Shown: positions 1,497-61,598, numbered from the stretch's first letter. The stretch is 64,000 nt of DNA from an uncultured Methylococcaceae bacterium (GCA_903930145.1 CAIYXP010000300.1:768-64767); one strand, 5' to 3'. The notes: generated by a model not told the origin, from the sequence alone. Numbers and translations are program-made.

Positions 1497-1503
1497 TATC
1501 AAT

Positions 1504-3843: not shown

Positions 3844-3855
3844 GAATAAACGCAT

Positions 3856-6184: not shown

Positions 6185-6191
6185 GGCAGGT

Positions 6192-12846: not shown

Positions 12847-12953
12847 GCCGAACAATGGATTTTGTATTGGGTTGCATCAAATCCGACAGGCTTCAACATT
12901 CAATAAAATGGCTTTCACAGCACATTTAAAAAGCAAGGTCAAACAGATAGGTC

Positions 12954-14886: not shown

Positions 14887-14936
14887 CGGGCAAGGCGTTG
14901 AGGCGACCAGGCAATAATTTAGTGCAATCAAAATGA

Positions 14937-38422: not shown

Positions 38423-38438
38423 AGGCCAAGCAAAGCAT

Positions 38439-44400: not shown

Positions 44401-45287
44401 TAGCTTGGAATGAGTGGCTGTTTGAGTATGCGCAATCCACCGAGGTCATGCAAAGCCTGCCTTATTGGAAAAAGCTGGCTGAACGGTTCTATGTCCAAAT
44501 CTGCCCCGACCCGCCCCTCGCGGGCACTTTAGCAGAAGGTCTGACCGCAAGCCTGATATTGGATGCCAAGGTTTCGGACTCGGTGGCACGCGAGGCAAAC
44601 CGAGCCTTTGGCACAGAACCCCAGCATCTGCTCCTATGCGCCTTGGGCTTAGCCTTGTCGGAATGGAGGGGGCAGGGCGATTACCTGTTGAATCTGGAAG
44701 GACACGGACGCGATGGATTGCGCAATCTGCCCGACGTGGGGCGCACCGTGGGTTGGTTTACGGCTGCCTACCCCTTCGCTTTGTCCGCGTCATTGGATTT
44801 GGGCGAGGCTTTGAAGCAGGTGAAAGAATCTTTGCGGACTGTGCCGGGCAAGGGCATGGACTACGGGCTACTGGTCTATCTGACGCGAGAACTTGCAGCA
44901 ACGGACCGAGCATGTTTAAAGTCATTGACACCGCAAATTGGGTTCAATTTCCTCGGCAATCTCGACACTCTGCCTGGCTTGGACGATGGCGTGCATGTCT
45001 TGGGCAGGGCAGTCACCGCCAGCCCCGCCTTGCGGTTGGCGCTGCCCTTGGACATTGTGGCATCGTTGCGTGGTGGGCGGATCGAACTGGAAGCCCTTTT
45101 CGACTCGACCCGCCTAGCCCCGTCCGAGGTAGATAGTTTCCTAGCCGTTTATCGGGAAAAGCTGGTGTTGTTAACCGCTCATTGCCTAGCCCAGCAGACT
45201 GTCGAAAAAACGGCGAGCGACTTTACCACCACCAAGCTCACCCAAGAAGAATTGAGCGATATTTTTGAAGACCTTGAGTTCATTTAA
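38439..45287 (+). CDS. Hybrid PKS/NRPS: KS-carrier protein-C-A(Ile/Val-like)-PCP-E
   Basis: - KS: Cys 39072-39074, with HGTGT and NIGH intact. No AT, KR or DH.
- Carrier: Ser 40593-40595 (GGDSI).
- C: HHIVTDG, from 41177.
- A: SGSTGQPKG about 42580; NGKVDR about 43575.
- PCP: Ser 43740-43742.
- E domain: HHLVVDVVSW from 44283, EGHGRD, RTVGWFT, FNFLG. Confidence 0.95.
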   Translation: MSAQGNDIKKELIRFLLEQVKQQRLEKDMAVGFLKSLSEQPEPAADDVAIIGMACRFPGADNKEAFWDNLLAGRSSIGPFPPHRRADLGGIDDGRVKLFEGGFLDRVDGFDHEYFRIPPNVARHMDPYQRLFMETALETFEDAGYPRQTFYGKPIGVFVGNDHTHRLINSYLDFIEEPDFNSLTGSWTGVLSSRISYLFNLKGPAVVVDTACSSGLVALDQAIKSLRDKDCEMALVGAANLFFLPSKGIVGEIESEAPQVRAFDRDAHGTVWGEGVAALLIKPLTLALRDGDSVYAVVKGIAVNNDGASNGLTAPNAKAQQEVILKAWERAGINPEEISYIETHGTGTNLGDPIEVKGLVEAFSRHSVRRQFCGIGSVKTNIGHTVGVAGLASLIKVLLSLTHNRLTPSINFGTPNPFIDFSNSPVYLNDQVREWNPGDKPRLAGVSSFSLCGTNCHVVLQDPPRQAVSDDGFGQTGPWLFPVSARTVELLNETLRRYLAFLDAGQTYAMADLCFTAAVGREHHGVRAVLVAEDLNGLRDSMADLLTALEEGIPAGDGSRVFCSASAGNKGSAAVDREGKERLALASGQRTLLSLARLAESYVEGANIPWEELYRGSRTRRVGLPPQPFSRARFWDIPPSKIVADVGQKASESTANMADRFIGRDEFLAKVRGEPTRVRGLKEGEDGFPYAIAAYLWSEVLGYPSLQLDDDYYALGGDSITGMKIVHLFNTLFGLDLGPTDILAAPTLREFVSSLLENHDFYRVLHAAGGSADEVANIVRLTQGTVYDLSRAERRMFLLDQMNPGSTSYNVNAIVSMAETDLTEAEIIIRRIIDRHEILRTSFELRGGEPVKVVHPSVHFVLESIETGLDMSEEIDLRKAMQKFVRPFDIARPPLLRVGFARTETAFYMMIDMHHIVTDGSSMGVLINEYLAHEAGQPLEPLPFQYQDFAAWQNRLFESGAYQRHANYWASRFNGEIPALELKTDYPRPGYQDFRGAKEQFSIPAELAQDLRRLAREQGTTLFTVLLATFKTLLHRLGGGDDLVVGSPVAGRSRLDLQELIGMFVNTLALRDTVGPDDSFAEFLGTVKANTLAALSHQDYPYEELLEILDIPRNGGRNPLFDVYFVLQNEDMGFSAGRKVRSIPFDTGTAKFDMTVIARETEEGIDLDWEFATSLYKASTIHRFGIAFLRLLRTVTNDPEVSIRQISLLGDDERRLILDTYNDTATAYPSGSGIPALIEMVVRQQPEAIALTMDGVSLTYGELNAEANRLARRIQKEGGTPGQAVALLYERSPAMVVAILAVLKAGCAYVPLDTENPPARATGILSDSRAALLLVGSGLPTPNGWEGIALHPEKLDLHGVSAENLDLELSGEALAYIMYTSGSTGQPKGVLIRHKSVVRVVCNANYIDLLPSDTLLQLSNYAFDGSVFDIFGALLNGAHLVLLSRQEVIDMDAVSSIIQENAVTVFFVTTALFNALIDNAIDSLYSVRHILFGGEAASLRHVSKARQFLGPGRLIHVYGPTETTIFATAQIIDHLDEAMGAVPIGKAISNTQLYVLDSSFMPVPHGVEGELYIGGDGVALGYLNRDDLTAERFASNPFREGERVYRTGDLVKWLEDGSLHFLGRRDHQVKIRGFRIELGEIEASILRHPLVKECLVTADADATGRKTLCAYIVPKQLELFSVQNLRSFLGSNLPDYMVPSSMIVLSAFVLTPNGKVDRRLLPTPVVESAQIVAARNPREAAMAQVWAEVLNCREVGIHDNFFAIGGDSIKAIQLTARLQAQGFGLRVPLLFQHQTIAELEPYLTDGMADGAEQGEVTGGLQLNPIQLWFLSSEPAQIHYFNQSIVVALDTLPSAAEVLDAVAALCAHHDALRAVFWREGDGFKSEIRGFSAQAYRLFEWQAVSVDPAELASDPSMVELQSSLDLDNGPLMAVGLIHTPTGGGGVCISIHHLVVDVVSWNVLLADFQACLEAGAKGEAPVLPLKTTSVIAWNEWLFEYAQSTEVMQSLPYWKKLAERFYVQICPDPPLAGTLAEGLTASLILDAKVSDSVAREANRAFGTEPQHLLLCALGLALSEWRGQGDYLLNLEGHGRDGLRNLPDVGRTVGWFTAAYPFALSASLDLGEALKQVKESLRTVPGKGMDYGLLVYLTRELAATDRACLKSLTPQIGFNFLGNLDTLPGLDDGVHVLGRAVTASPALRLALPLDIVASLRGGRIELEALFDSTRLAPSEVDSFLAVYREKLVLLTAHCLAQQTVEKTASDFTTTKLTQEELSDIFEDLEFI

Positions 45288-45346
45288 ACCAAGCCGACCC
45301 GCTGACAGTGGGTCGGCAAGCTGCCCGCCAGGAAACGAGTGAGAAT

Positions 45347-48300
45347 ATGTTGAGCAAAGAGAATATTCAAGACATTTACGGTTTGGCTCCGATGCAGGAA
45401 GGCATGCTCATCCACTATGCCCGGGACGCGACGACCGAAGCTTATGTGGAGCAATTCAGCTTCGTCATTGAAGGGGAGATTGACTATCCAGTCTTACAAA
45501 AAAGCTTGGATGCCTTGGTGATAAAATACGATGTATTACGCACCATCTTCAGTTTCCGCAAAACCGACCTGCCCAGGCAGGTGGTGCTCAAGGCACGCAG
45601 GCCGCAACTACTTTGCGAGGATTATTCGGTTTACGAGCCGCAAGCGGCGGAAGACGCCGTGGAAGAATTTAAACGGCGCGATAAGGCCAAAGGTTTCGAC
45701 CTGTCCAAGGACATCTTGCTGCGCGTGTCTTTACTCAAGGTCGGCGGACAACGCCACCACATGATTATGACCTTCCACCACATCATCCTTGATGGCTGGT
45801 GTATGGGGCTGATTTTCCAAGATTTGTTTGCCTTTTATGACCGGATTTCAGCCAACCCACTGCTTGAACCCAAGGATCGGGAAGCTTATTCTTACCGCCA
45901 GTTTATTGCTTGGGTGGGGGAGCAGGACAAGGCGGCGGCGGCACAATATTGGAGCCATTACCTTGAAGGCTACCAAGCGGAAGTCGGGCCGCCCTATTTT
46001 GACCTCCGCCATGACGGCCAAACCGAACATGCCGTGCACATCTTCTCCCTTGGGCAGGAAATCAGCGAGGGACTGGAGTCTTTAGCCAAGTCGCGGCTGC
46101 TCACCGTCAGTAGTGTGTTTCAAACCGCTTGGGGGATATTGCTCCAGAAATACCAAAACACTGATGATGTAGTCTTCGGCTCGGTGGTTTCAGGACGGCC
46201 TGCATCATTGCCGGGCGTTGAAAGCATGGTGGGCTTGTTCATCAACACTCAGCCTTTACGGGTTGCTTGCAGTTCGGGGGAATCTTTCGGCAGCGTGGCG
46301 GCCAGAGTTCAGCAAGGAAGTTTTCAATCGGTGGGTTATGAATATTATCCCTTGTTTGAAATCCAGTCCAAGTCGGCCTTGAAAAACCGATTGCTCAATC
46401 ACATCGTGGCCTTTGAAAACTACCCGTTGTCTGAACAACTTCGCCAGTTCGGAGAATCCAGCCAAGGGCTTCGAATCACGGATGTGAAGGTGTTTGAGCA
46501 GACCAACTACGATTTCAACGTCATTGTCTATCCAGGTCGGGACATCGGGGTTAATTTCACCTATAACAGAAAGCGCTACGACGATGCCTGCATCGCTGGC
46601 TTGGAGCGAGGCTTGCACCATTTGCTTGCCCAGATCGTAGAGGATCCTGATGCCCCAGTGAGTTCCCTAGGGATTTGCTCGCCACTTGATTCGGCCCTGA
46701 TCCTAAACACCTATAATGCCACCGCGACGGACTATCCTTCCTGTCGCAGCCTTCTCGAATTATTTGTGGAAACCGCCTCCGCCCGACCCGATGCCGCCGC
46801 CCTACGCTATCGCAACAAGGTGTTTAGTTATCTGGAATTGCAACAGCATGCCATGGCTGTCGGCGGTGAACTGCGCGAGCGCGGGATCGGCTTTGGCAGC
46901 ACCGTGGCGCTGATGACGCCGAATCGCCCCGAGATGGTCGTCGCCATCTTGGCGATCCTGTCTTGTGGGGCTGCTTATGTGCCCATCGAACCCGGAACCG
47001 TGCCTGATAGGGTCAAATTCCTGTTGGAAGATTCCGGCGCAAGCTTGGTCTGCACCCTGGCCCCTTATGCGGAGTCATTTCCCCCGGATGTCGCCGTCCA
47101 TATTCTTAACCTAAGCCACGATTCCCCGGCGAAACCCCTTGAACCTTGGCACCAGCCAGTAGACTCCTCAGTCGCTGCTTATGTCATGTATACCTCGGGT
47201 TCGACCGGGAGGCCCAAGGCCTGCGTTGTCAGCCATCGGAACATCGTCCGTTTGGTGCGGGGAACTGACTACGTGGAATTTGGGTCGGCCCACCGTATTT
47301 TACAAACGGGTTCGCCGGCCTTTGATGCCAGCACCTTTGAAATCTGGGGGGCGCTGCTCAACGGCGCGGAACTTTGCCAAGCCGACGAGGCTGACATTCT
47401 CGATCCGGCCCGGCTTCGGCCATTATTGCAGGATATGCATATCACCATGCTCTGGCTGACCTCGGCACTGTTCAACCAGCATTGCGAAGCGGACCCTGGT
47501 ATGTTCCGGCCCTTGCGCTACCTGTTGGTGGGGGGGGATGTGCTCTCGCCCCGGCATATCGATCGGGCGCGCACCGCCAACCCTGGCCTGAAGATTATCA
47601 ACGGCTACGGGCCTACGGAGAACACCACATTCTCCACCACGTTCCCCGTCGAACGCGCCTATGAAACTCGCATCCCCATCGGACGGCCCATCAAAAATTC
47701 AACGGCCTATGTGCTGGACGTAGGGCTAAACCTACTGCCTCCCGGTGCTTATGGCGAACTTTGCGTAGGTGGCGACGGCGTTGCCTCAAGATACCTCAAT
47801 CGCCCAGAATTGAGCGCGGAAAAATTCATCGATGATCCGTTCCGTCCCGGCGGACGCCTTTATCGGACGGGTGATGTTGCGCGCTGGCTCCCGGATGGTA
47901 CTCTTGACCTATTGGGACGTACAGATTTTCAAGTTAAAATTCGCGGTTTTAGGGTCGAACTGGGCGAAATCGAACGGACTTTATGCACCTTGCCCGGTGT
48001 CATTGAGGTCGTGGTCATTGTGCGCGACGGCTTAGGAGGCAAGCAGTTGTGCGCCTACCATGTAAGCGATAGGGATATAGCGAACCAAGATTTGCGCAGT
48101 GGTTTGGCGACCCGCTTGCCAGGTTACATGGTGCCAGCCTTCTACCTCCGATTGGACAGACTGCCGCTCACAGCCAATGGAAAGGTGGATCGACGGGCGT
48201 TGCCACCCATCGACATTGGTGTGACCTCAAGCCAAGGGTTCACGGAACCGCGCAATGTCACCGAGTTGCGCATTGCCGGGATTTGCGAGGAGGTGCTGGG

Positions 48301-48574
48301 CATTAGCGAAATTGGGGTCTATGACAATTTTTTTGATGTCGGGGCCAATTCCCTCAACCTCATCACCATCAATAACCGCCTAAGGGATGCCTTTGCCAAG
48401 GACATTCCCGTCACGGCGCTGTTCGAGCACACCAGCGTGGCGCAGTTGGCTGAATACATTGGTGCGGACGCGGAACGCGAGCAGGAGAAGATCGAGCGTG
48501 AAAACGAAGAATTGGAACAGGCCAAAGGCGTGTTGCTGAAAACCAGAAACCTGATGCGGAACCTAGACGAGTAA
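45347..48574 (+). CDS. NRPS module C(DCL-like)-A(Val-like)-PCP
   Basis: N-terminus NIQDIYGLAPMQEGML. C motif HHIILDGWC (from 45776). A-domain motifs SGSTGRPKA, NGYGPTENT, YRTGDVARW, KIRGFRVELGEIE, NGKVDRR. PCP Ser 48350-48352. TAATG stop/start overlap with the next gene at 48572-48576. Confidence 0.95.
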   Translation: MLSKENIQDIYGLAPMQEGMLIHYARDATTEAYVEQFSFVIEGEIDYPVLQKSLDALVIKYDVLRTIFSFRKTDLPRQVVLKARRPQLLCEDYSVYEPQAAEDAVEEFKRRDKAKGFDLSKDILLRVSLLKVGGQRHHMIMTFHHIILDGWCMGLIFQDLFAFYDRISANPLLEPKDREAYSYRQFIAWVGEQDKAAAAQYWSHYLEGYQAEVGPPYFDLRHDGQTEHAVHIFSLGQEISEGLESLAKSRLLTVSSVFQTAWGILLQKYQNTDDVVFGSVVSGRPASLPGVESMVGLFINTQPLRVACSSGESFGSVAARVQQGSFQSVGYEYYPLFEIQSKSALKNRLLNHIVAFENYPLSEQLRQFGESSQGLRITDVKVFEQTNYDFNVIVYPGRDIGVNFTYNRKRYDDACIAGLERGLHHLLAQIVEDPDAPVSSLGICSPLDSALILNTYNATATDYPSCRSLLELFVETASARPDAAALRYRNKVFSYLELQQHAMAVGGELRERGIGFGSTVALMTPNRPEMVVAILAILSCGAAYVPIEPGTVPDRVKFLLEDSGASLVCTLAPYAESFPPDVAVHILNLSHDSPAKPLEPWHQPVDSSVAAYVMYTSGSTGRPKACVVSHRNIVRLVRGTDYVEFGSAHRILQTGSPAFDASTFEIWGALLNGAELCQADEADILDPARLRPLLQDMHITMLWLTSALFNQHCEADPGMFRPLRYLLVGGDVLSPRHIDRARTANPGLKIINGYGPTENTTFSTTFPVERAYETRIPIGRPIKNSTAYVLDVGLNLLPPGAYGELCVGGDGVASRYLNRPELSAEKFIDDPFRPGGRLYRTGDVARWLPDGTLDLLGRTDFQVKIRGFRVELGEIERTLCTLPGVIEVVVIVRDGLGGKQLCAYHVSDRDIANQDLRSGLATRLPGYMVPAFYLRLDRLPLTANGKVDRRALPPIDIGVTSSQGFTEPRNVTELRIAGICEEVLGISEIGVYDNFFDVGANSLNLITINNRLRDAFAKDIPVTALFEHTSVAQLAEYIGADAEREQEKIERENEELEQAKGVLLKTRNLMRNLDE

Positions 48575-51500
48575 TGAAAATTCAAACGACGCGCACCGGC
48601 CTTGAGATCGCCGTTATCGGCCTGTCTGGGCGTTTCCCCGGCGCTTTGAATCTGGCTGAATTTTGGGGCAATCTTGTATCGGGCACCAATTCAATCTCCC
48701 TTCTGAGTGATGAGGAGTTGAGGGGGGCGGGGGTTCACCCCGAACTGATTGCCCAGAAGAACTTCGTTAAGGCAAAAGGGATTTTCCCAGACTTGGAGTA
48801 TTTCGATGCGGATTTCTTCGAGTATACCCCGAGGGACGCTGCGTTGATGGATCCACAGGTTCGTGCCTTACACCAAGGGGTCTATCACGCATTGGAAGAT
48901 GCAGGCTATGCTTCCGAGCAATACAAAGGCTCTATCGGCTTGTTCCTTGGGGCTTCAGGCAATTTCCTGTGGGAAATGTCCACTTTCTTGGAGGCGAAAG
49001 ACAGCGGTTCGGCCCAATTCGCCACCTTGCAATTGAACGATAAAGACTTCGTTGCAACCCGCATTGCCTACAAGCTCAATCTACGTGGCCCTAGCGTGGC
49101 GATTCATTGCGCCTGCTCCACATCCCTTTACGCCATTGATGTAGCGTGCCGCAATCTGTTGACCGGTTCCTGTTCCATGGCGGTTTGCGGTGGAAGCGGG
49201 CTCACGCTTCCCGTTCGCAATGGTTATTTATACGAAACCGGGATGATCAAATCCGCCGACGGGTCTTGCCGCCCTTTTTCTGATGATGCCAACGGTACTG
49301 TCGAAGGCAACGGGATGGGTCTGGTGGTGCTCAAACCTTTAGAAGATGCCTTGCGCGATCGGGATCGGGTTTATGCTGTGATCCGGGCCACGGCAGCTAA
49401 CAACGACGGTGCCCGCAAGGTGGGATATAACGCGCCTAGCGTGGAAGGCCAGGCCGAAGTCATCCGGCGTGCCTTGCACATTGCAGATGTGCAGCCGGAA
49501 AGCGTGACCTACGTGGAGGCGCATGGCACCGGCACGGCGTTGGGCGACCCGGTCGAAGTAGAGGGGCTGAAGAAGGCTTTTCGTAGCGATGAGACGGGGT
49601 TTTGCGGAATCGGTTCTTTGAAATCAAACATTGGGCACCTCGACACCGCTGCCGGCATTTCATCCTTCATTAAGACCGTGCTTGCCTTGGAGAAGCGACT
49701 GATTCCGCCAAGCATCCATTTTCGCGACGCCAATCCGAATATTGATTTCTCCCATAGCCCGTTTTATGTGATCACCGAAGCGACACCTTGGGAGAACCAG
49801 CCAGCCCCGGGGCGGCCTGACCACGTCCTCCCATTGCGCGCCGGGGTAAGTTCCTTTGGCATCGGCGGCACCAATGTGCATGTGGTATTGGAAGAAGCTC
49901 CGGCACAGCCAGAATCTGATAATGGCCGCGAGTGGAAGCTGTTATGCCTGTCGGCCCGCGATGAAGCAGCCTTGGGCCGTTTGCAAAACGCGGTGGCGGA
50001 ATTCGTGAACAGCAACCCCGGCATGAATGTCGCCGATCTCGCCTACACGTTTCACAGCGGTCGCCGAAGCCTTCCCGTCCGCGCGGTGCTGGCTTACCGC
50101 GATGTCCAGGATTTACAGGGAGCTTTGGGCAATCAGGTCTCGCCGCTGCCTTACTTCAAGGCTCCGCAAGCACCCGTGCGCATGGCCTTCTTGTTTTCCG
50201 GTCAAGGCACCCAGTACCCGGGCATGGGGATTGGGCTATATTCAAGCGAGCCCGCCTTTAAAGAACAGGTGGATCGCTGCCTGGAGATTTGCGACAGTCT
50301 GGATTTGCCGGAAATCCGTCAGCTACTCCTTGAACCCACGGAAAGCGATGCCGACTTAGTCAAGCAGACCGAATTTGCGCAGCCTGGCTTGTTCATTGTT
50401 GAGTACGCGCTGGCTCGACTGCTGATGGATTGGGGTATTGTGCCGACAGCGATGATCGGACACAGCCTCGGCGAATACGTGGCCGCCTGCATTGCCGGTG
50501 TGTTTTCGCTGGAACGGGCTTTGGACCTGGTGGTTCGTCGAGGGAGGCTCATGGGGTATATGTCGCCTGGATCAATGCTCGCCGTGTCCGCTCCCGAAGC
50601 GGGTCTGGCTTTGCCGGCTGGCATCGATTTGGCTGCCGTTAATAGCCCGTTTCAATGCACGGTTTCAGGGCCCACAGAAGCTATCGAAGCATACGAAAAT
50701 GATTTGAGGGAACAGTCCATCGGCACCCGACGTCTCCAGACCTCGCATGCCTTCCATTCCGCCATGATGGAGCCAGCACTGGAATCGTTCATGCAAGTGG
50801 TCAGCGCCATGCGCCTTGATGCGCCAAAAATACCCTATCTCTCCAACGTTTCTGGAACTTGGATAACGGCGGAGCAGGCACAGGACCCGGCGTATTACGT
50901 TAGGCATTTGCGTGAAACAGTCAGGTTTGCGGAGGGCGCGAAAAGGATATTGGAAGACACGGGTTTGGTATTTGCTGAACTGGGGCCGGGCAATGTTCTT
51001 TGCACTTTCCTCAAGCAGAACTCGGCGGTGACCCATGCCGTGCCGACGGTGTCTTTGATGCGCCATGGGAAAGCCACCGAAACCGATGCCCAACACTTGG
51101 TACATGGTTTGGGCACGTTGTGGGGCTTTGGAGTCGCGCCAGACTGGAAGCGTTACTACCGCCCCCAACAACGGTTCAAACTGAACGCGCCTCTCTATCC
51201 CTTTGAAAGACGACATTTTCCTGTGGGTGAGAGAGATATTTACAGCCTTCTGGCACAGAGCAACACGACCCCCACGGCTCATAGCTTGGCGCTGGCGGCC
51301 GAAAGGCGAACCTTGTTGAATACGCTTGGTTGGCAAGCGTCTGCCTTGCCCCCCGCAGTGGAGTCAAGTGCTGTCGAGCCATGCCTGCTGTTTGGGCGAA
51401 ACTCTCGTGCCGGCAAGACGGTTTCCTTGGTCGAGGGGCTGCGTTTGATCCAAGTCCGCGCCGGCATGACCTTCACCAAGCGAGGATATGCTGAATATCA

Positions 51501-54500
51501 AATGAATTTTGGAGAATTATTGGATTACCGGCGGCTGGCTAGGTTCTTGAAGCATGGCGATGGCGTGCCTGGACTGCTGATCTGGGTGGTCGACGGGGGC
51601 GACCTGAAATTGTCCGACGAATTCACTGGGCCTTTGCTTCGTCTCGCCATCGCTTTGCGAGATGAATGCCCCGGTCAGGCGTTCCGTTGCATCGTTTTGA
51701 TCCCCGGCGGCACCCCGCAACGATTCCAGAACCACCCAGACGAGGGTTTCGAGCCCGATGGCTTGGCGCGAGGACTGCGTGCCGCTTGCCTCAATTTCGA
51801 TGTACGCTGTGTCGGGTTTGATCAAGCATGCAGTGAAGAGTCCTTGGGGGAACTGGTAGGTAGAGAAATCTTCGACTCAGATCAATCTATTAGCCTTACG
51901 GCCTATCAAGGCAATCAACGCTGGGTGTACCGCCCCCAGCCGGGGTTTGCTGCCGCATCCCATCCGTCCAACCGTTTTCGCGGTCAAAATCTGGGTCTGC
52001 TTGCCCCCGACACCTTTCCGCTGGACGAATTGGCCGCCCTAATCGGAGAGTCTAGCGGAGCCCGCATCCTGCCGCTGACGTGGAAGGTGCCGCAGGCACC
52101 GGTTTCTGCTCAGTCTGCGATTGATGCGGACACCGCCTCGCTGAGCGGATATTTGCGCAAAATCCAAATGACCTATCTTGCACAATATGGACTGGAGGAT
52201 TTTGGACATTGCCATGCGCTAATGGACGAACTATCCACCGCCTTGGTTGCCGATTATATCCACACGCAAATGCCCTTGGTTCCGGGGCAACGCTTTGACA
52301 GGGAGGGCTTGAAGCAGAGTTTGCGGATTGTTCCGCACCAAGAAAAATACCTCGACTACTTTATCGACATGCTCGCCGAAGACGGACTGATCGTCGCCAG
52401 GGGCGAGGCTTACGAAATATTGCATGGACCCGGTTCCTTGCGGCCAATTGGCAAGATCAAACAGGAACTGGAATCGGCAAGCCCTTTGTTTTCCGGGCAG
52501 GTAAGATTGTTGGAGCATTGTGTGACCGCTTTTGACAAGGCGCTGCCCGGAGCGATACCCTCCATCGAAGTGCTTTACCCGGAAGGTCGCAACGAACTAT
52601 TGCGCGCCACCTATGAAGGATCGATCCAAGAAAAGGAGGACGAGTACATACGGATGATGTTCGAGAAATTAAGCGGCAAAATCATCCAAGACGCCCGTGG
52701 CAAGCGCTTGCGCATTCTTGAGGTCGGCGGAGGTTACGGCAACGTGATGCGTCGTATCGTTCCCTTGCTGCGCGACGCCGATGTAGAGTACTACTTCACC
52801 GACATTGGCAAGACTTTCTTGGAAGACGCGAAATCCTTTGCCATAGAAGAAGGCTATCGCTTTCTGCGCTTCGGCGTGCTTGACATTACCCAAGACTCCA
52901 TCGAACAGGGGTTGGAGACAAACGCCTTCGATGTGGTGTTTGCTTTCAACGTCGTCCACGCTACCCGCAATCTTGGCATCACCCTCGGTAATATGCAGCG
53001 CTTGCTCAAACCAGGGGGCGTGTTGGGGTTGTTGGAACGCACCAAGGTTCGGCGTTATGTCGATTTAATCTGGGGCTTAGCGGATGGCTGGTGGCATTTC
53101 GACGAACCGGAACGCTCTAGGTCTCCACTCTTAGATTTAGGGCGATGGGAAGAAACCATCCGCCGGCTTGGCTTCACGGAGGTGATGACCTATCCCGATA
53201 CACAGGAAATCCGCGACCGGTTGGATGTGGGCCTGTTAATCGCCAGAAATGAAATGATAGCGGTGAACCTAACCGCGAAAACTCCCTCCATCCCGGCCAA
53301 GGAAGTGGGTTGGCAGCTTTCCATGCCGGTATGCTTAGATCTGATTGACGGGTTATTGTTGATCGAACCAACCCCTGTTCGCCCCGAGTCCAATTTCCCG
53401 TCCATCGGCGGCGACCCTGCCGACCCTTGCCATGACTACGCAGGATATGTAGAGGCTATGATTGCTTGGCTTGGTGCGCATCGACCCGGCTTCGTCAGCG
53501 TTTGGTCCTCTGGCTCTGCGGCGGCGCATCCATCGGATGAAATGGCCCGAATCAAGGCTGCTGCACAGCTTGATACGTGGGGTGGCTGGCTACTTGGCAA
53601 CAGCGGTTCGTGGTCCCGAGTCTATCTCCCGCTGGATGTTGGCGAGTCTGCCCTTCTAACGCATTCCGTCATCTGCGAAGCATTGCGCGCCATCGAAAGC
53701 GGCTTGGCTCATGCCGTGATCCATCCCGAGCGGCAGGACTCGTTCTCGCCCCCCCGTCAGGATGCGTATGCATGGCGTGCCACAGCCAAGGATAACCAGA
53801 AACATGAAAGCCTTCCCGAAGACGAAGGCTTTACTCCAGATGTGCCGAAAGACGGGTGCATCCGCCTACTACAAACGCTGTGGAGCGAATTGTTTGGTTT
53901 GGAAAAGATTGGCTTGGACGACGACTTTTTCGCGCTCGGCGGAGATTCCCTCAAGGTCGCGCAGTTGACGACCGAGCTTGAGAAGCATGGAATCCGCCTA
54001 CTATCTAACGAGGTGTTCGCCCGTCCGACTATCCGCAGCCTTGCCGAATACATTTTGACCCAGCGCATTGACGAGCACGACAGGGTGCAGACACCCGAAG
54101 ATATCGTCAGGCATTATCGGGAAAACCTCAGGCTTGATGCCGCCTACCAGACCTACGAGTTGGATGGGCAGGAATATCGGATTCTCTTCGTGGAAGACAG
54201 CGCACTCGCCGGCGGCGGCAAACCGGAACAGTCGATGGACAACCTCAAAGTGTTGGCACGAATCCAACCCCATTATATATTGCCATTGTCCTGTTTCTCC
54301 GGCATCTCTGCCAGCGGGGAGACTGATAGTTTCTGGGGCGCTATAGGCATTACCGAAAATGCAGGGCCTGAAATCATCGAATCACTCGCACAACAGGCAG
54401 CCAGCCAAATGGCGGAAGCCAACCGCGCCATCTGCGCTGGCCCGGTCGATGCCCGCTATACCCTTACACCGTTCCAGAAAATGTATCAGAAGGAGTCACA

Positions 54501-55740
54501 GCTCGCCCTATACCTCATTGAAATGGATGAGACCTTAGACTTGAAATTACTTGACCAAGCATTTACAGCCCTCGTCAAAACCCAAGGCTTGTTCAGGACA
54601 GAATTGCGTCGGCGGCTAGGAAGGGCCAAATGGGTGGAACACGCGCCGCCCGATAATCTAAGTATCCCTTTGATGGATTTGTCCGGCTATAGCCCTGTCG
54701 TACAAGCCCAGTTATTCGAGCGGATCATGGCCTTAGAATACGGACTGGACTTGCCTAGGGAAGCTGGAATACGCTTCAGAGTGCAACTGATTATTTTCAA
54801 CCGTCGCCGCTATACGCTCATGTTTAACGTGGATCACGCCATTTTTGACAACATGAGTGGACAGATTTTGCGCAACCAGTTCATCGGTCATTATCGTGCC
54901 CTGCTTTCAGGGAAGATTGCCGGGTTAAGCCCAGTCAAAAGCTATCGTCAATACTTGGAGCAACGGCGCGAAGGGCCTCAAGGTATTAATGAAAAACGCC
55001 TCATCCAACGGTTTGACTTGGAACGTTACGGGAAGGCAAGGGACGCTGTTGAACAACGCATCCTTGCGCATCGACAGAAAAACATCGGCAGATGCCGTTA
55101 TTCGCTGAATCTGACACAGTTCCAATTGGCAGACGACGACGAAGCCACTTGGGAACTGAGCATGATAGTCCTGTGCTTAGTATTGGAGAGGTTCCTTGGA
55201 CAAAAGGAGATTCCTTTAAAGCTTCTTTACCAAGGCCGAAAATACCAAGACCAGTCCTATTTCGACACCATCGGCCTATTCATCGACGTAGTTCCGCTGA
55301 TGCTGCAAGTTGATCGCGACAATCCGACAGCCATGATCAATGGGATCAGAGCAAAGCTTCAGTTGCTCAAACAACACAATATAAGCTTCACCAATCTACT
55401 GTTTAATCCATTGATGTGGCTAAAATGGGGCAATGTGATCTCGTTGACGGGATCAAAGAAATTGTCAAGACGCGACCCCATGATACTGTTGAATTATGTG
55501 GGAAAGGCCGAGAAGGAGTATCAGAAGATCATCGAATTTGCATCGGAAAACTTGGAAAATTTAGGCGGAAAGATGGATTACGCGAGTTTTTACAGCATTG
55601 TCACCGTTGTGGACGGTCATATCAATTTCGATGTCTTTTGCAGCTTCGAACGAAATATGGATGTCTTGTTGCGTTTGTTTGAGGAGGAGGCTCGCTACTT
55701 GGCGGTCGGTGGGCTAGGCGGCGGAAATGACCGTCAATGA
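48574..55740 (+). CDS. Terminal PKS: KS-AT-(structural KR-like region)-methyltransferase-(degenerate KR-like region)-ACP-terminal condensation-like domain
   Basis: - KS: Cys 49114-49116 (HCACSTS), HGTGT, NIGH.
- AT: Ser 50464-50466 (GHSLGE), HAFH 50746-50757.
- SAM-MT motif I: LEVGGGYG, 52717-52740.
- ACP: Ser 53947-53949.
- C-like domain: DHAIFDN at 54832-54852 in place of HHxxxDG. Confidence 0.93.
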   Translation: MKIQTTRTGLEIAVIGLSGRFPGALNLAEFWGNLVSGTNSISLLSDEELRGAGVHPELIAQKNFVKAKGIFPDLEYFDADFFEYTPRDAALMDPQVRALHQGVYHALEDAGYASEQYKGSIGLFLGASGNFLWEMSTFLEAKDSGSAQFATLQLNDKDFVATRIAYKLNLRGPSVAIHCACSTSLYAIDVACRNLLTGSCSMAVCGGSGLTLPVRNGYLYETGMIKSADGSCRPFSDDANGTVEGNGMGLVVLKPLEDALRDRDRVYAVIRATAANNDGARKVGYNAPSVEGQAEVIRRALHIADVQPESVTYVEAHGTGTALGDPVEVEGLKKAFRSDETGFCGIGSLKSNIGHLDTAAGISSFIKTVLALEKRLIPPSIHFRDANPNIDFSHSPFYVITEATPWENQPAPGRPDHVLPLRAGVSSFGIGGTNVHVVLEEAPAQPESDNGREWKLLCLSARDEAALGRLQNAVAEFVNSNPGMNVADLAYTFHSGRRSLPVRAVLAYRDVQDLQGALGNQVSPLPYFKAPQAPVRMAFLFSGQGTQYPGMGIGLYSSEPAFKEQVDRCLEICDSLDLPEIRQLLLEPTESDADLVKQTEFAQPGLFIVEYALARLLMDWGIVPTAMIGHSLGEYVAACIAGVFSLERALDLVVRRGRLMGYMSPGSMLAVSAPEAGLALPAGIDLAAVNSPFQCTVSGPTEAIEAYENDLREQSIGTRRLQTSHAFHSAMMEPALESFMQVVSAMRLDAPKIPYLSNVSGTWITAEQAQDPAYYVRHLRETVRFAEGAKRILEDTGLVFAELGPGNVLCTFLKQNSAVTHAVPTVSLMRHGKATETDAQHLVHGLGTLWGFGVAPDWKRYYRPQQRFKLNAPLYPFERRHFPVGERDIYSLLAQSNTTPTAHSLALAAERRTLLNTLGWQASALPPAVESSAVEPCLLFGRNSRAGKTVSLVEGLRLIQVRAGMTFTKRGYAEYQMNFGELLDYRRLARFLKHGDGVPGLLIWVVDGGDLKLSDEFTGPLLRLAIALRDECPGQAFRCIVLIPGGTPQRFQNHPDEGFEPDGLARGLRAACLNFDVRCVGFDQACSEESLGELVGREIFDSDQSISLTAYQGNQRWVYRPQPGFAAASHPSNRFRGQNLGLLAPDTFPLDELAALIGESSGARILPLTWKVPQAPVSAQSAIDADTASLSGYLRKIQMTYLAQYGLEDFGHCHALMDELSTALVADYIHTQMPLVPGQRFDREGLKQSLRIVPHQEKYLDYFIDMLAEDGLIVARGEAYEILHGPGSLRPIGKIKQELESASPLFSGQVRLLEHCVTAFDKALPGAIPSIEVLYPEGRNELLRATYEGSIQEKEDEYIRMMFEKLSGKIIQDARGKRLRILEVGGGYGNVMRRIVPLLRDADVEYYFTDIGKTFLEDAKSFAIEEGYRFLRFGVLDITQDSIEQGLETNAFDVVFAFNVVHATRNLGITLGNMQRLLKPGGVLGLLERTKVRRYVDLIWGLADGWWHFDEPERSRSPLLDLGRWEETIRRLGFTEVMTYPDTQEIRDRLDVGLLIARNEMIAVNLTAKTPSIPAKEVGWQLSMPVCLDLIDGLLLIEPTPVRPESNFPSIGGDPADPCHDYAGYVEAMIAWLGAHRPGFVSVWSSGSAAAHPSDEMARIKAAAQLDTWGGWLLGNSGSWSRVYLPLDVGESALLTHSVICEALRAIESGLAHAVIHPERQDSFSPPRQDAYAWRATAKDNQKHESLPEDEGFTPDVPKDGCIRLLQTLWSELFGLEKIGLDDDFFALGGDSLKVAQLTTELEKHGIRLLSNEVFARPTIRSLAEYILTQRIDEHDRVQTPEDIVRHYRENLRLDAAYQTYELDGQEYRILFVEDSALAGGGKPEQSMDNLKVLARIQPHYILPLSCFSGISASGETDSFWGAIGITENAGPEIIESLAQQAASQMAEANRAICAGPVDARYTLTPFQKMYQKESQLALYLIEMDETLDLKLLDQAFTALVKTQGLFRTELRRRLGRAKWVEHAPPDNLSIPLMDLSGYSPVVQAQLFERIMALEYGLDLPREAGIRFRVQLIIFNRRRYTLMFNVDHAIFDNMSGQILRNQFIGHYRALLSGKIAGLSPVKSYRQYLEQRREGPQGINEKRLIQRFDLERYGKARDAVEQRILAHRQKNIGRCRYSLNLTQFQLADDDEATWELSMIVLCLVLERFLGQKEIPLKLLYQGRKYQDQSYFDTIGLFIDVVPLMLQVDRDNPTAMINGIRAKLQLLKQHNISFTNLLFNPLMWLKWGNVISLTGSKKLSRRDPMILLNYVGKAEKEYQKIIEFASENLENLGGKMDYASFYSIVTVVDGHINFDVFCSFERNMDVLLRLFEEEARYLAVGGLGGGNDRQ

Positions 55741-55771: not shown

Positions 55772-57100
55772 ATGAAACTGTTTTGGCTAAAACCCAGTTT
55801 ACGTAAAATAAGCGATTTATTCGCTATCCTGTCTATTTGCCTTGCCGTGAACATCGCCCAGGCATTTCCGCCTGTTGATGCTGTTGAAAAAAAGTGGTAC
55901 TCGGGCATCAAGGTGGACGGCAGCTTGCAGACTACACTCGGTATCGACGAACCCAATGTGGGTTCAATATTCGCATCCAAAGACACTCGTTCACAAGTGG
56001 ATTTTTCCACCCGTCGGTTCAACGCCCTGTTAAGGGTACGGCAGCCTGGGAAATTCCTCGCCTTGTTCGATGGCATGTTGGAAAACGACCAAGACACCGG
56101 ACAAGATCTGCACCAAGGCTTGGTCAACCAGCTTTACCTTGCTTACGATGTTACCGATGTGCTGCGGGTCAGGGTTGGGAAACAGCGTACATTATGGGGC
56201 CATGGTTTTGCATACATACCGACGGATTTCATCAACCCACCCCTTGACCCCACTGCATTGAACTTGATAAGACCCGGGGTGAAGGCGATTTCCTTCGACT
56301 ACTCTTTTTCAAAATTCACATTGTCGGGAATTTTGACGAAGGACAGTGGCAAAGTGATTGGTGGAGAAGGCTTAAAATTGACCAGCAGCGCCATCTCCGG
56401 GTTGGATTTTTATTTGATCTATTACCATTCTGATATTGTCGGTCATGCCGGCGGGGCTTCGTTCGCTGTGGATCCCTCTGTAATATGGTTCCCGAAATGG
56501 CCTAGCTTTGTTATTTACGGATCACTTGGAATCAACGAAAAATCGCGCTACCCGGAAGTCCTGAATGCCACATACACCGTCAATGGCAGTAATTTATACT
56601 ACCCTGCCGTAGGTCCGACCGGCAAAACGGGCCCTTATCTGTCATTTCTAGCGGCGATGAGTTACGAGTTCGTCAAGGCGAGGCTTAGCCTGTCCGCCGA
56701 ATATTACTATATAGGCGATGCCTACCCGCCGGGTGACCGAGATAAAATCATGAATGCATTGTCTAGCCCCAATATTTACGTGAGTCAACCCAGTTCACTT
56801 TGGCTCAACAACCTAACCGCCTTTGGCAGGAACCAACAGCAATATCTTTCGCTTTCTCTAAGCCATCGTTCAGTTACGGAAGGCGTGAATCACTTCCTTG
56901 ACACTTTCGGTTATGAACTTGGGCTGTTGCAAGGGTTGAACGATTCTTCTAACTTTATGACTGCCGCGATAAAATCCAATTATTGGAGCAACACGGAGAT
57001 AACCCTTCGTTCTTTCCAGCCGTTTGGAAATAGCAAATCCGAGTTCGGGTCTATGCCATTCAATTGGAATCTCCAATTGCTGGTCAAAGTGGGATTTTAG
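55772..57100 (+). CDS. Putative outer-membrane beta-barrel protein (unknown family)
   Basis: Signal peptide ending AVNIAQA. Alternating amphipathic beta-strand pattern, aromatic-rich, with a C-terminal ...LLVKVGF ending in Phe as in OMP beta-signals. I could not place the family by eye. Confidence 0.6.
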   Translation: MKLFWLKPSLRKISDLFAILSICLAVNIAQAFPPVDAVEKKWYSGIKVDGSLQTTLGIDEPNVGSIFASKDTRSQVDFSTRRFNALLRVRQPGKFLALFDGMLENDQDTGQDLHQGLVNQLYLAYDVTDVLRVRVGKQRTLWGHGFAYIPTDFINPPLDPTALNLIRPGVKAISFDYSFSKFTLSGILTKDSGKVIGGEGLKLTSSAISGLDFYLIYYHSDIVGHAGGASFAVDPSVIWFPKWPSFVIYGSLGINEKSRYPEVLNATYTVNGSNLYYPAVGPTGKTGPYLSFLAAMSYEFVKARLSLSAEYYYIGDAYPPGDRDKIMNALSSPNIYVSQPSSLWLNNLTAFGRNQQQYLSLSLSHRSVTEGVNHFLDTFGYELGLLQGLNDSSNFMTAAIKSNYWSNTEITLRSFQPFGNSKSEFGSMPFNWNLQLLVKVGF

Positions 57101-57145: not shown

Positions 57146-57928
57146 TTGAATCGATGGCGTCTGCTGGGGTGTTGGTGCGTTTCTGTTGTCGAGGTAAGTT
57201 TGGATAAAATATATTTGTTCGCAATACCCTATGCTGGCGGTTCAGCAGCAGTAATTTATGGGAAGTGGGCCCGCTACCTTCAAAAGCACTTCATAGTCAT
57301 GCCTTTGGAAATGGCCGGGCACGGACGGCGCATGAGCGAACAGTTCCACGAAAACATGGATGAAGTGGTTGCCGACCTGTTCAATATGGTTCGCCCCATA
57401 GCTAAAAATCATCCCTATGTCATTTATGGTCATAGCATGGGTTGCATCATCACTTACGAATTGGTCAAAAAATTACAGATTGCCGGCTATCCTCCGCCGC
57501 AAACCATTTTTCTTTCTGGGCGCAATCCGCCTGATCATGCTTACGCAAGTAACTCACTCCATCTTCTAGCGGATAATATATTTCTACAGGAAATCAGAAA
57601 GATAGGTGGGACACCCGATGAATTCTTCGAAATGAAGAGTCTTGTCGATGCATTTCTCCCGATTATCCGTAGCGATTACCGCATTATCGAGCATTATGTA
57701 TTTTCACCGCCCATTCATGTTATGGACACTGATTTGGTTTTCCTCCATAGCGACCAAGATGTTCTTGTAAGCGAGCCGACAATCCATGAATGGCAGCGTT
57801 ATTGCTCGGGACGTTTTGAAGTAGAGAAGTTTCAAGGGGGTCACTTTTTCATTAATGACTATACTGAGACGATTTGCGAACTGATCGGTAGATCACTCTC
57901 TATTCCCTTATCTAAGACGGTATTATGA
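57146..57928 (+). CDS. Type II (editing) thioesterase
   Basis: LFAIPYAGGSA, GHSMGCIITYE, C-terminal GGHFF. The true start may be the TTG at 57200, 5 nt after the GAGG at 57191-57194. Confidence 0.9.
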   Translation: MNRWRLLGCWCVSVVEVSLDKIYLFAIPYAGGSAAVIYGKWARYLQKHFIVMPLEMAGHGRRMSEQFHENMDEVVADLFNMVRPIAKNHPYVIYGHSMGCIITYELVKKLQIAGYPPPQTIFLSGRNPPDHAYASNSLHLLADNIFLQEIRKIGGTPDEFFEMKSLVDAFLPIIRSDYRIIEHYVFSPPIHVMDTDLVFLHSDQDVLVSEPTIHEWQRYCSGRFEVEKFQGGHFFINDYTETICELIGRSLSIPLSKTVL

Positions 57929-58307: not shown

Positions 58308-61300
58308 TCATTGGGCCTTCCACCCCGGCTTGATTTCATCAAGCAGAGTATTGATCTTGTCAACGACATCTTCTGGCACACTTCCCCCTTCGCCGATTTC
58401 AATACTGACTCGAATAAGCAATTTCTGCCCTGCCTTCAGGGTTATCAGCTCGTCAATGCGCTCGGAGAAATCTTGGATTTCATGGGTTTCTAATTCGGCG
58501 GTGGCTATCTTTGTGCCGTATGCCACGGGCTTGATGATTTTGATCCCGGGTGGTTCTTTAGGTACTCGTATCTTCAAGGTACTGGCACCCCCAAGGTCAC
58601 AGGGCCAGGGGGACGAATCTAAAGTCCTCTCTAATAATCCAAGCTGGAAGGCTTCTTCCAGCGCCCGTTTTACGATGACCCATGGAAGCGGTTTGCCTCC
58701 CCCTTTTAACGCAGATAGTGCCGCATGAATAAGGTGCCCTGTGGTCTCACTATCTTTCCAAGCTTGCCCCAAGCTTGCAGGCAACAGATCGGTTGCCGGG
58801 ATTGGGGTTGGCGGTGCTAGGACAATAGCCTGTTCGTTCAAGAACCCACTCGGAACATCCTCCCCCAATACACTGATGGTGCCACTGACTAGCCAAAGTC
58901 GGTTAGTCTTGACTGCCTCGGTCACCGCAGATTTAATCGCTTCTAGCGTTGCAGCCGGAATCAGCAGGTTTTCGGAATATCCGCCTTTGTCCACGGGTTC
59001 AAAGTGTGTCCCGGAGAAATAGGTTTCCAACCGGGCCAATTTCATCGAATCGCCAGACCACAAACCGGGCAGCATTCCCGGCGCAAGCAGTGCAGGATCA
59101 AGATCAACCAGCGTAGCGGCATCGGACAGCAACACTTCCAAGCTCGATTCGGCTAGGGTGTGTTCATCGGGGCGGCATTTCCAGAATGTCCGCACCGATT
59201 TGTCAGAACGGGTTACCCTCAGCACGAAGTCGCCAGATTCGCAGCCTAGCAACAGCGTTTCCAATATGGCATTTCGGTTCAGCATCTTAGGCAACTTTGC
59301 GGTTGCTGCGAAGGAGCCAACCAAGTCTTTGACGAAGCGGGATTTCTCCCCTTCTTCCCAAAGGTCATAGGGTCCACCCGGCAGTAGCGCCTCGGCATTG
59401 ACCGCCGTGCTTTCAATGCGCACCCGCGTGTCGGCTGCGATTTTTGAAAATAAGGGCGTGTTATCGACGGTGATTCGATAGGCTGCCACCTCGTTCTTTT
59501 TGTCAACGGTCACGACAATGCAATAAGCCATCACGATTTGGGACACCATCTCATTACTGGCGACACGCAGACTGGCTTCCAACATGGCGGTGCGGGCGGT
59601 GTCGATATCGTTGCGGTCCTTCAGCATTTCCCTGACTTTTTCCCAACCCAGAAAGTCCCTCACCTTTTCGCGGGCAATGTCCATGGCTTCAAGGGAAGGC
59701 ACGGCCAGCACAACTGCGTTGCGATTATTCGCACGCGGCTTGTCAGGCCCGGTCGTTTCGTCCAAGAACCGCCTTGCTTCGGCACTGGGCTTACCCGCTT
59801 CTGATGCAGCCTTCGGTTTGAGGATCGCGTAATGGAATTCGCCGTCATCCTCGATTTCCGAAGGTTTACTGGGCAGCTTATGCAATTTAATGCCATAACC
59901 GCTGGCACCTTCCCATAGCTTGGCAGCCTTGGCGATTTGGTTTTCCAACACTTCCTCCAGCACCGTCTGGCTGATATGCTGACGGGCATCATGATGCATT
60001 TGCTTGAGGTTGGGCTTCGAGCCTAAACGCCATACCCGAGGCAGACCTGCCTCACGTTCATTGGTGAAGGTGTCGTCGAGATACCAGGATCGATCAGCCC
60101 AGCGCAGCAACCCCTTATCCAACTCGATCTTGTCTGGCGCACCGCCGCCCAGTAACATCAGCATTTCACGGGTTGCCGCCCGTTGCCCAATGGGTTGCGA
60201 ATGCAGGAAGGTGGCAATGACGGCCTGTTCGATTTCCCGGTGTTTCAATCCGCCCAAGTCTTCTTGTGCCTGCCTCGCGTGTTTGAGTTCGGCCTCCAGA
60301 ATGGCCGTCCAGTTTTGTTTCCTGCCCTCGTATTGCTCCAACTGGGCAATCGTCGTCAGTTCACGGGTCGCCACGCTCAGGCCGTCCTCGTTGGCGGCAC
60401 TCAAGAAAACTTGCGTCCCGATGATGGGGGCCGTGTCTTGCCATTGCTCGGCATCGCGCAATGCCGATGCCAAGGTTTTCAGAATGCCGCGAGTTTGCTG
60501 GAAACCTTCCAGCCCAGTCCATTTTCCGTAGAGAACATTCACCAAATCAGGATGGAAGGGATAGGAATCCATAAAGCGTTTTTCCTCCGGGGAGGGATTT
60601 TTGGCGGTTTGACTGTCCACCGCCTTGATGCCATTCAATGTGGCGTAGACCTGCTCCGGCCATTTCGTGCGATCAGTATAGCTTTCCAATTCAAACAACC
60701 GTCGCCGCAGAATTTCCGGCACGTCATGCTGCTCCACTGGTTGGATGCCTTCATCGGCCACCCGCTTGAATTCGTCATACAACTCCCTGCTGATCTTGCG
60801 GCCCAGTTCATCCATCTTCTTGGTGTCGGATGCCAGCAGCGAAGCCACCAGACAACATTGAGGAACTTTCGATACGGCTTGGGTCAGGTGGTGCAAAAAT
60901 ACAGACATTCGCCCCTCCCATGCCTTATCCTGATCGACCATGGTGCGGACGAACATGAGCACTTCGTCAAATAGAATTAATATCGCTGGCACGTCTTGCC
61001 TTGCCAGTTGCAGGACTTCTTCCAAGACATTGGTGGCGGGTGGTTGGGGGCGCTCTTCGCCTGACTCCTTCATCAGCTTCATTGCCGCCGCACCACCCAA
61101 TTGCCACGCCAACACACTCCAAGGCATTTTCAACCGGGCGACATTGCCTAATGGGTCGCGAACCTCCATGCCCATTTCGGCATCCAAGCGGTCAAACACT
61201 ACGGCGGCGATACGCGCCCTCGGCAAGGGGACTTCACAATGCGTCTTGAACTGCTGCACGGCGGGGATTTCAGGCAATGCCTCCGGGTTTTGGCACAGAT

Positions 61301-61595: not shown

Positions 61596-61598
61596 GTT

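Follow-up and report, generated by a model that had tools for sequence, protein, structure and literature searches.

The subject of this report is the terminal polyketide synthase (PKS) of a hybrid gene cluster in an uncultured Methylococcaceae bacterium, and in particular the condensation-type domain with which this protein ends. The window, i.e. the whole stretch of DNA that was analysed, comprises 64,000 nucleotides (GCA_903930145.1 CAIYXP010000300.1:768-64767), and the cluster spans ~12.9–57.9 kb of it. The terminal PKS is encoded on the plus strand, as are all of its domains described below, by an open reading frame (ORF) of 2388 amino acids (aa) at 48574-55740, for which the reading frame, Pfam and AlphaFold2 (AF2) models give the order ketosynthase (KS) – acyltransferase (AT) – region X – C-methyltransferase (C-MT) – region Y – carrier – pseudo-Asub – condensation domain (C). 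Pfam matches were obtained for KS, AT, an S-adenosylmethionine-dependent methyltransferase (SAM-MT), PP-binding and Condensation, and none for a ketoreductase (KR) or dehydratase (DH). Along its full length the protein is 54% identical to a 2406-aa ORF of a Janthinobacterium sp. metagenome-assembled genome (MAG), and a megablast search of the ORF against plasmids found nothing beyond a 62-bp PKS match. A first-pass annotation of the same DNA had placed this ORF and a number of motifs within it, and all of these coordinates proved correct when the sequence was read again.

The terminal condensation-type domain, here called Ct (54445-55713), consists of two CAT-like lobes and is ~425 aa long. 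Pfam PF00668 matches aa 1980-2264 with 72 bits (cut-off 30.6), covering profile positions 30-322 of 456, and the AF2 model, calculated from a 29-sequence alignment (pLDDT 89, pTM 0.86), has the complete two-lobed fold of C-type domains. The best structural matches in Foldseek are the C domain of SrfA-C, PvdL C3 and TycB3 E (~1e-21), within a range of 1e-18 to 1e-22 that includes CDA-C1, while the nearest solved relatives of the Ct family profile are the C domains of bacitracin, PvdL, McyB and surfactin, i.e. bacterial domains of the DCL/LCL type. The active-site motif reads D-H-A-I-F-D-N (aa 2087-2093, 54832-54852) after a valine at 54829, and does not conform to the full HHxxxDG, since the first His is replaced by Asp and the Gly by Asn. 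His2088 (54835-54837) and Asp2092 (54847-54849) are invariant in the 29-sequence family alignment. Profile and fold typing thus bear out the first-pass view of a real C domain in which, on proper alignment, the second His is kept and the first is an Asp; the ~560 aa that had been ascribed to the condensation fold shrink to ~425 aa, the remainder being a pseudo-Asub of ~90 aa and a long helix. The ORF stops 8 residues beyond the modelled Ct, and no carrier is encoded by the genes that follow. A Cy-type domain was considered as well, given that D2087 and D2092 formally fit DxxxxD, and was rejected, as the His is kept and no further module follows; Cy structures match the Ct profile poorly (EpoB Cy 3e-6, BmdB 0.04).

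Immediately upstream of Ct lie the carrier and the segment that joins the two. The carrier (aa 1765-1827, 53866-54054) was identified by Pfam PF00550 and by NCBIfam models of NRPS (nonribosomal peptide synthetase) carrier regions; it has the core DDFFALGGDSL, which resembles that of peptidyl carrier proteins (PCPs), with Ser1792 of GGDSL at 53947-53949. It is followed by ~90 aa (aa 1840-1930, 54091-54363) for which AF2 predicts a small alpha/beta domain (pLDDT ~90). A profile of this segment picks up the C-terminal subdomains of adenylation (A) domains elsewhere, weakly but consistently, and hhalign aligns it with the A-domain C-terminal subdomain over 80 columns (probability 93%, E 2.9e-7), with PHYILPLS (54268-54291) set against the A9 motif LPxYMIP. 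Judging from these profiles and the model, the segment is what remains, in degenerate form, of the C-terminal subdomain of an adenylation domain, hence the name pseudo-Asub. Almost every terminal copy in the Ct family has this extension (163 matches near C-termini).

The extent of this family became apparent from an exhaustive HMMER search of 1.84 billion representative proteins, in which 105 proteins matched at E<1e-30 and domains were mapped in the best 150; searches for homologues with the single sequence and with a 12-sequence profile had yielded nothing but one fragment of 310 aa. Among the best 150 representative proteins, 142 copies of Ct are located at the extreme C-terminus. The synthetases that end in this way are diverse (T denoting the carrier): KS-AT-X-MT-Y-T-Ct, KS-AT-T-Ct, C-A-T-Ct, A-T-Ct and long NRPSs, as well as short lines such as KS-AT-T-AmT-C-A-T-Ct, where AmT is an aminotransferase; an aminotransferase starter module is present in three other Ct-terminated synthetases. 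In the 136 terminal copies that could be aligned, the first motif position is D in 60, S in 31, N in 19 and H in 17, the second His is kept in 132 and the Asp in 135, and no more than 36 have G at the Gly position. In the 183 internal C domains that these proteins contain, the first His position is H in 151 cases, the second is H in 158, and the Gly position is G in 141. This difference between terminal and internal copies, a D/S/N-type first position together with loss of the Gly, makes the odd motif a hallmark of the terminal clade. Named members come from Oceanobacillus manasiensis and Paenibacillus thiaminolyticus and are annotated merely as 'type I polyketide synthase'; the literature on DHxxxD, JamQ, CroK and terminal C domains yielded analogies and no characterised member of the clade. 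The family also includes single-module A-T-Ct proteins of ~1130 aa encoded on plasmids of Paenibacillus sp. IHB B 3084 and Eleftheria terrae, and no TE (thioesterase) gene is annotated near either of them.

The terminal position of Ct, its conserved catalytic residues and the pattern across the family together argue for a role as release catalyst. We consider it likely, from the sequence, that Ct frees an alpha-methyl-beta-ketoacyl chain by passing it to a nucleophile not attached to any carrier. Release by the terminal C domain had been the central proposal of the first-pass annotation, and it gains support from the C fold, the retained His and Asp, the 142 C-terminal copies and the lack of a type I TE or reductase (R) domain in the cluster synthetases (12.9–57.9 kb), where no further cluster gene was found to encode a competing release domain of these kinds.

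The nature of the released chain depends on the domains at the front of the protein. The KS (aa 11-440, 48604-49893; Pfam PF00109/PF02801) retains Cys181, HGTGT and NIGH and is, with all three present, catalytically complete, while the AT (aa 539-818, 50188-51027; Pfam PF00698) displays GHSLG and HAFH, a malonyl-type motif. The embedded methyltransferase spans aa 1218-1552 including its helical lid (52225-53229), with the SAM-MT core recognised by Pfam at aa 1375-1534. In a phmmer search of solved structures in the PDB it matched the CurJ C-MT (5thy, aa 1218-1552) at 4e-51, DisA/DszA at 4e-35 and PksCT at 4e-28, with PsoF, AprA-MT2 and LovB as further C-MTs among the matches, and an AF2 model of aa 870-1765 (pLDDT 78) superposes on 5thy with a TM-score of 0.83 in Foldseek. 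His1462 in NVVHAT (52948-52965) and Glu1488 in LLERT (53029-53043) are aligned with the His and Glu of CurJ, with an identical spacing of 26 residues, and both are invariant in nine homologues. The alternative of an O-methyltransferase (O-MT) of the StiD/StiE type was tried and rejected: no PKS O-MT occurs among the sequence matches at E<=1 or the top 50 fold matches. By sequence and modelled fold, the embedded domain is a CurJ-type C-methyltransferase, and the question of C-MT versus O-MT can be regarded as settled. The first-pass annotation had recognised the SAM motif LEVGGGYG (aa 1382, 52717-52740), which is confirmed, and had left the type of methyltransferase to be checked.

The sequences flanking the C-MT, region X (aa 880-1217, 51211-52224) and region Y (aa 1553-1760, 53230-53853), correspond to what had been described as motif-less, KR-like stretches of ~650 and ~350 aa. 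They are indeed devoid of motifs, and it is their sizes that require correction, because the C-MT with its lid takes up aa 1218-1552. The absence of an NADPH-binding GxGxxG motif after KS-AT also holds: the only GxGxx[GA] string in the whole protein is GDGVPG at aa 995, which is not a dinucleotide-binding loop, since the beta-strand comes after it and not before it in the AF2 model. Comparison with KR models lends weak support to the KR-like label for X and none for Y. Region X has a Rossmann-like beta-alpha-beta topology in the AF2 secondary structure; the KR structures 5d2e and 6ulw were matched at ~1e-10 in Foldseek, with the whole X-MT-Y model as query; the KR-associated PF21394 scores 19 bits (E 9e-4), below its cut-off of 26.9; and hhalign against KR gives a probability of 38%, so that X may be called weakly KR- or psiKR-like. 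Region Y is predicted to be a small beta-alpha-beta unit, and hhalign detected neither a KR signature nor any relative of it. The only invariant residues of X are W, L, R and P, Y has almost none, and conserved polar residues are lacking in both. An active KR in either region was rejected in view of the missing KR Pfam match, the missing NADPH loop and the near absence of invariant residues. Both regions look structural in role as far as their sequences tell, and, with neither KR motifs nor conserved polar residues in X and Y, the beta-keto group should survive. Domain mapping of the related Ct-PKSs revealed no KR anywhere in the close subfamily.

A comparison of one Janthinobacterium MAG and 20 metagenome loci, each with flanks of 10 kb, shows that the terminal PKS is part of a shared end cassette, which consists of a C-A-PCP gene, a KS-AT-(cMT)-T-Ct gene and a discrete TE gene. 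Some of the 21 loci are near-duplicates, so they represent about a dozen independent lineages. In all 14 loci with enough upstream DNA, a homologous gene for a single C-A-PCP module comes before that of the PKS, and the last A domain is mostly Val-like. Gram-negative-type loci, which carry a gene for an outer-membrane-like protein, have the cassette, and so do relatives of Paenibacillus and Oceanobacillus origin. In 18 of the 21 loci the gene for the discrete TE comes either first or second after that of the Ct-PKS; in the window the TE is a 260-aa protein of the type II TE family (57146-57928, plus strand; Pfam PF00975, 138.9 bits). Its best solved relative is 5ugz (8.5e-45), followed by RedJ, RifR (3e-29) and SrfD (1e-27). 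5ugz is probably ClbQ, a TE that off-loads colibactin intermediates.

The first-pass annotation had regarded this protein as the only TE and as an editing enzyme. It is the only TE within the cluster, but a purely editing role is no more than assumed, since a TE gene stands beside the PKS in almost every related locus and the protein is closer to 5ugz than to the editing enzymes. The TE could instead be the true release enzyme and act by hydrolysis, perhaps with spontaneous decarboxylation to a peptidyl ethyl ketone, in which case Ct would have another role or hold the chain. The recurrent position of the TE gene speaks for this scenario, as does the clear lead of 5ugz over the editing enzymes RifR and SrfD; moreover, a type II TE-like hydrolase has been proposed to free an amino-acid-plus-malonate beta-keto acid, with subsequent decarboxylation, in myxopyromide biosynthesis (bioRxiv 10.1101/2023.04.01.535179). 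However, type II TEs commonly accompany NRPS/PKS genes as editing enzymes, the scenario leaves unexplained why a C-terminal C domain has kept an invariant His and Asp across hundreds of lineages, and the NRPS-type Ct lines on the two plasmids have no TE nearby. On balance, release by the discrete TE is unlikely. Hydrolysis by Ct itself, which would yield the free beta-keto acid in the manner reported for CroK-C2 (crocacin) and the IvoA CT, is less probable still. Hydrolytic C-like release domains do exist, as cited in PMC5640695 and PMC11546977, and no acceptor would have to be named; on the other hand, a hydrolytic TE is already available from a discrete gene close by, and an alpha-methyl-beta-keto acid is prone to decarboxylation.

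The genes downstream of the cassette were surveyed in five related loci (L012, L013, L016, L019 and L020), where they encode transporters, regulators, a phosphopantetheinyl transferase (PPTase), transposases, a glycosyltransferase and one stand-alone methyltransferase. The latter belongs to L012, whose terminal PKS lacks the embedded C-MT (KS-AT-T-Ct) and whose stand-alone SAM methyltransferase gene (12360-13133 of that locus) directly follows the TE gene, an arrangement that recalls the tetramate O-methyltransferase accompanying Dol15F. Intermolecular release by Ct would have a linear beta-ketoamide as its product, the acceptor being a free amine or alcohol of primary metabolism (a polyamine, an amino acid or ammonia, for example), as with VibH, the C_FAA enzyme OaaC, glidonin C13 and the rhabdopeptide terminal C domains. 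This is the sole single function that would fit every architecture of the family, including A-T-Ct and the short lines, and the change of the first His to Asp and the loss of the Gly parallel the (D/H)HxxxD[S/A] motif of the amine-using C_FAA domains (PMC13310621). Nevertheless, relatedness to VibH is negligible (1l5a, E 0.029-0.058), no C_FAA structure was matched, and an amine-biosynthesis gene is absent from the cluster and from the downstream regions of the five loci. We therefore give transfer to a free acceptor a small, though appreciable, chance.

The remainder of the cluster defines the chain that would arrive at the terminal module. Its first genes (12954-16381) form an FkbH-type cassette of a 3-hydroxyacyl-CoA dehydrogenase, an FkbH homologue (TIGR01686 match above cut-off), a 93-aa acyl carrier protein (ACP) and an acyl-CoA dehydrogenase, which, judged by its gene content, would make hydroxymalonyl-ACP. 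This cassette could in principle supply the acceptor of Ct as a carrier-bound hydroxy acid (glyceryl- or hydroxymalonyl-ACP), to give an ester and maybe a tetronate-like ring. The presence of the FkbH homologue, the free-standing ACP and the two dehydrogenases is in keeping with such a role. The cluster has three ATs, all apparently of the malonyl type (two carry HAFH, one is FabD-like), and none seems specialised for a hydroxymalonyl unit; in addition, the C domain of BurF esterifies a carrier-bound alpha-hydroxy acid (PMC12304814). Still, the four genes are the standard pathway to a hydroxymalonyl-ACP extender, the 10-kb flanks of the cassette in related loci contain no FkbH-type genes, and the wider family shows no link to FkbH, which leaves a hydroxy acid as a highly improbable acceptor.

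Next in the cluster is an iturin-like first synthetase with the order FAAL-ACP-KS-AT-ACP-aminotransferase-C-A(Gly)-PCP, and between it and a FabD-like trans-AT lies a 200-aa ORF (26872-27474) that matches no family model and, being very hydrophobic, probably encodes a multi-pass membrane protein. The trans-AT is followed by two KS-DH-KR-ACP proteins and then by a KS-ACP-C-A(Ile/Val-like)-PCP-E protein (38397-45287), whose KS motifs are all present and whose KS module contains an ACP only, with no reducing domain; its C-terminal epimerisation-type (E) domain (HHLVVDVVS) suggests that the Ile/Val-like residue is probably D-configured. The single-module C-A-PCP NRPS of 1088 aa (45308-48574, plus strand), recognised by Pfam, has the Val-type code DAFWLGGTFK, as read from its A4-A10 motifs. 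The stop codon of this gene and the start of that for the terminal PKS overlap. Between the PKS and the TE gene, a 442-aa secreted protein with a signal-peptide-like start and the C-terminus VKVGF is encoded (55772-57100, plus strand). It has no Pfam or NCBIfam match, is 41% identical to the product of the gene at the same position in another locus (L001) and looks like an outer-membrane beta-barrel; homologues occupy the position between PKS and TE in seven Gram-negative-type loci and are absent from the others, including those with Paenibacillus-like proteins.

The window also contains sequences on either side of the cluster. At its left end (3-1496) the C-terminal 497 aa of another synthetase include two tandem type I TE domains, so that the statement that there is a single TE applies to the cluster and not to the window. 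Genes for an MFS transporter, an ABC ATPase, a MacB-type permease, an HlyD-type adaptor and an outer-membrane efflux protein follow up to 7589, and 3-7589 as a whole resembles the final part of a distinct cluster of the lipopeptide type, encoded on the same strand. To the right of the TE gene, 58308-63983 on the minus strand contains matches to the Hma anti-phage system, namely an HmaC AAA+ ATPase (DUF499, 2e-77) and an HmaB DNA adenine methylase (DUF1156-like, 4e-79); the second of these ORFs comes within 17 bases or fewer of the right end of the window, and the helicase partner is not encoded within the window.

The domain order suggests the following course of synthesis. The FAAL-ACP-KS-AT-ACP-aminotransferase module would, like that of the iturins, make a beta-amino fatty acyl starter, and the chain would then be extended with Gly, by two trans-AT KS-DH-KR modules and one KS-ACP module, and with a D-configured Ile/Val-like residue and Val. 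The terminal module, with its complete KS and malonyl-type AT, would add one malonate unit, and the CurJ-type C-MT with its His-Glu pair would methylate the alpha carbon. The beta-keto group is expected to stay unreduced, which would leave an alpha-methyl-beta-ketoacyl chain on the PCP-like carrier. Ct would then take the chain off this carrier, with His2088 presumably acting as in ordinary C domains, and the discrete TE would serve to free mis-primed carriers or to remove stalled chains by hydrolysis. As there is no downstream carrier, the acceptor nucleophile should not be held on one.

Which nucleophile attacks is a separate matter. The chain's own nitrogen is a possible candidate, to which we assign somewhat less than an even chance, divided equally between the beta-amine of the starter, to form a macrolactam, and the amide nitrogen of Val, to form an N-acyl tetramate. 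By analogy with iturin cyclisation and the fungal CT domains, the beta-amine, which would be the best nucleophile in the chain, would produce a 21-membered macrolactam. The domain reading of the starter module is that its aminotransferase leaves the amine free, and this type of starter is the one shared with three other Ct proteins. Macrolactamisation through this amine, the route suggested in the first-pass annotation, is about as likely as two other readings with a nitrogen nucleophile or hydrolysis. The Val amide nitrogen, following the logic proposed for JamP and JamQ, would give an N-acyl-3-methyl-5-isopropyl tetramic acid; the tetramate route fits the strict conservation of an amino-acid module, a KR-less malonate module and a C-like domain.

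Several points weigh against this account of release as a whole. Catalysis by Ct is deduced from conservation, given that no characterised clade member was identified, and the single-module A-T-Ct members cannot cyclise, which argues for an intermolecular ancestral activity. Hydrolytic release by the TE is a possibility in light of its conservation beside the PKS and its kinship with 5ugz. The intermolecular option has its own difficulty, in that amine-making genes near the cassette were found in none of the five loci surveyed. With regard to the tetramate route, an amide nitrogen is a poor nucleophile, and the role of JamQ is itself only proposed.

A broader and more tentative proposal, which we regard as doubtful, is that the combination of carrier, pseudo-Asub and xHxxxD C domain constitutes an as yet unnamed bacterial counterpart of the fungal CT domains, a portable cassette that cyclises chains via one of their nitrogens, and that the Val-plus-malonate subfamily makes N-acyl tetramates or beta-ketoamide macrolactams without a TE. 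If the chemistry were established, the products of many TE-less clusters would become predictable, a portable off-loading unit would be at hand for engineering, and one would know if fungal CT cyclisation has a bacterial equivalent.

Among the known systems, the fungal CT domains, which macrocyclise their substrates (PMC11546977), are the most obvious point of reference. Like the CT domain of TqaA (5dij), Ct is a C fold at the end of a synthetase, directly after a carrier, and is taken to release the chain with no carrier downstream; of the HHxxxDG motif, either domain has lost the first His and retains the second His and the Asp. Unlike the fungal domains, Ct is preceded by an N-terminal pseudo-Asub. 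Membership of the fungal CT clade was examined and rejected, as 5dij ranks only 50th in Foldseek and there is no sequence or profile match at E<=1; of the analogy drawn in the first-pass annotation, the functional resemblance therefore survives and the kinship does not. A large survey of C domains lists CT as fungal only (PMC10212144), and release by C-terminal C domains is rare in bacteria according to PMC5640695, which cites crocacin, FK520 and C-1027.

A second group comprises C domains that capture free amines, such as OaaC, a C_FAA domain with the motif (D/H)HxxxD[S/A] (PMC13310621), and glidonin C13, which adds putrescine (PMC10587159). Ct has in common with VibH, OaaC, glidonin C13 and the terminal C domain of rhabdopeptide synthesis that there is no acceptor carrier, and it shares with C_FAA a (D/H)HxxxD motif not followed by Gly and an acyl donor on a carrier. 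The enzymes of this group are free-standing or followed by further domains, unlike Ct, and the source of an amine is not evident in this cluster.

In terms of module logic, the jamaicamide pair JamP (KS-AT-ACP) and JamQ (C-like) is similar: an amino-acid module is followed by a KR-less malonate PKS module and a C-like release domain, resulting in a gamma-acylamino-beta-keto thioester that can close to an N-acyl pyrrolinone or tetramate. Dol15F and MpdE are TE-based equivalents of this logic, in which TE domains close the ring. Unlike in jamaicamide synthesis, the C-like domain and the PKS form one protein here, and the module contains a C-MT. Among characterised modules, those of the epoxyketone-type terminal PKSs EpxE and EpnH come closest in architecture: they have the order KS-AT-cMT-ACP-TE after an amino-acid module and no KR, and yield an alpha-methylated beta-keto thioester. 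In epoxyketone pathways a type I TE releases the chain, after which the epoxyketone is formed by an acyl-CoA-dehydrogenase-like enzyme dedicated to this step. In contrast to EpxE and EpnH, the position of the TE is taken here by the pseudo-Asub and C domain, and the only acyl-CoA dehydrogenase belongs to the FkbH-type cassette 32 kb upstream. The embedded C-MT shares its helical lid, SAM motif and His/Glu pair with that of CurJ; it is located between two degenerate Rossmann-like regions, whereas the C-MT of CurJ is situated between a DH and an active KR. Taken together, the fusion with a pseudo-Asub and the conserved Val/malonate/cMT cassette appear to be undescribed, and Ct functionally resembles both the fungal CT domains and the bacterial amine-capturing C domains, while by sequence and modelled fold it belongs to neither.

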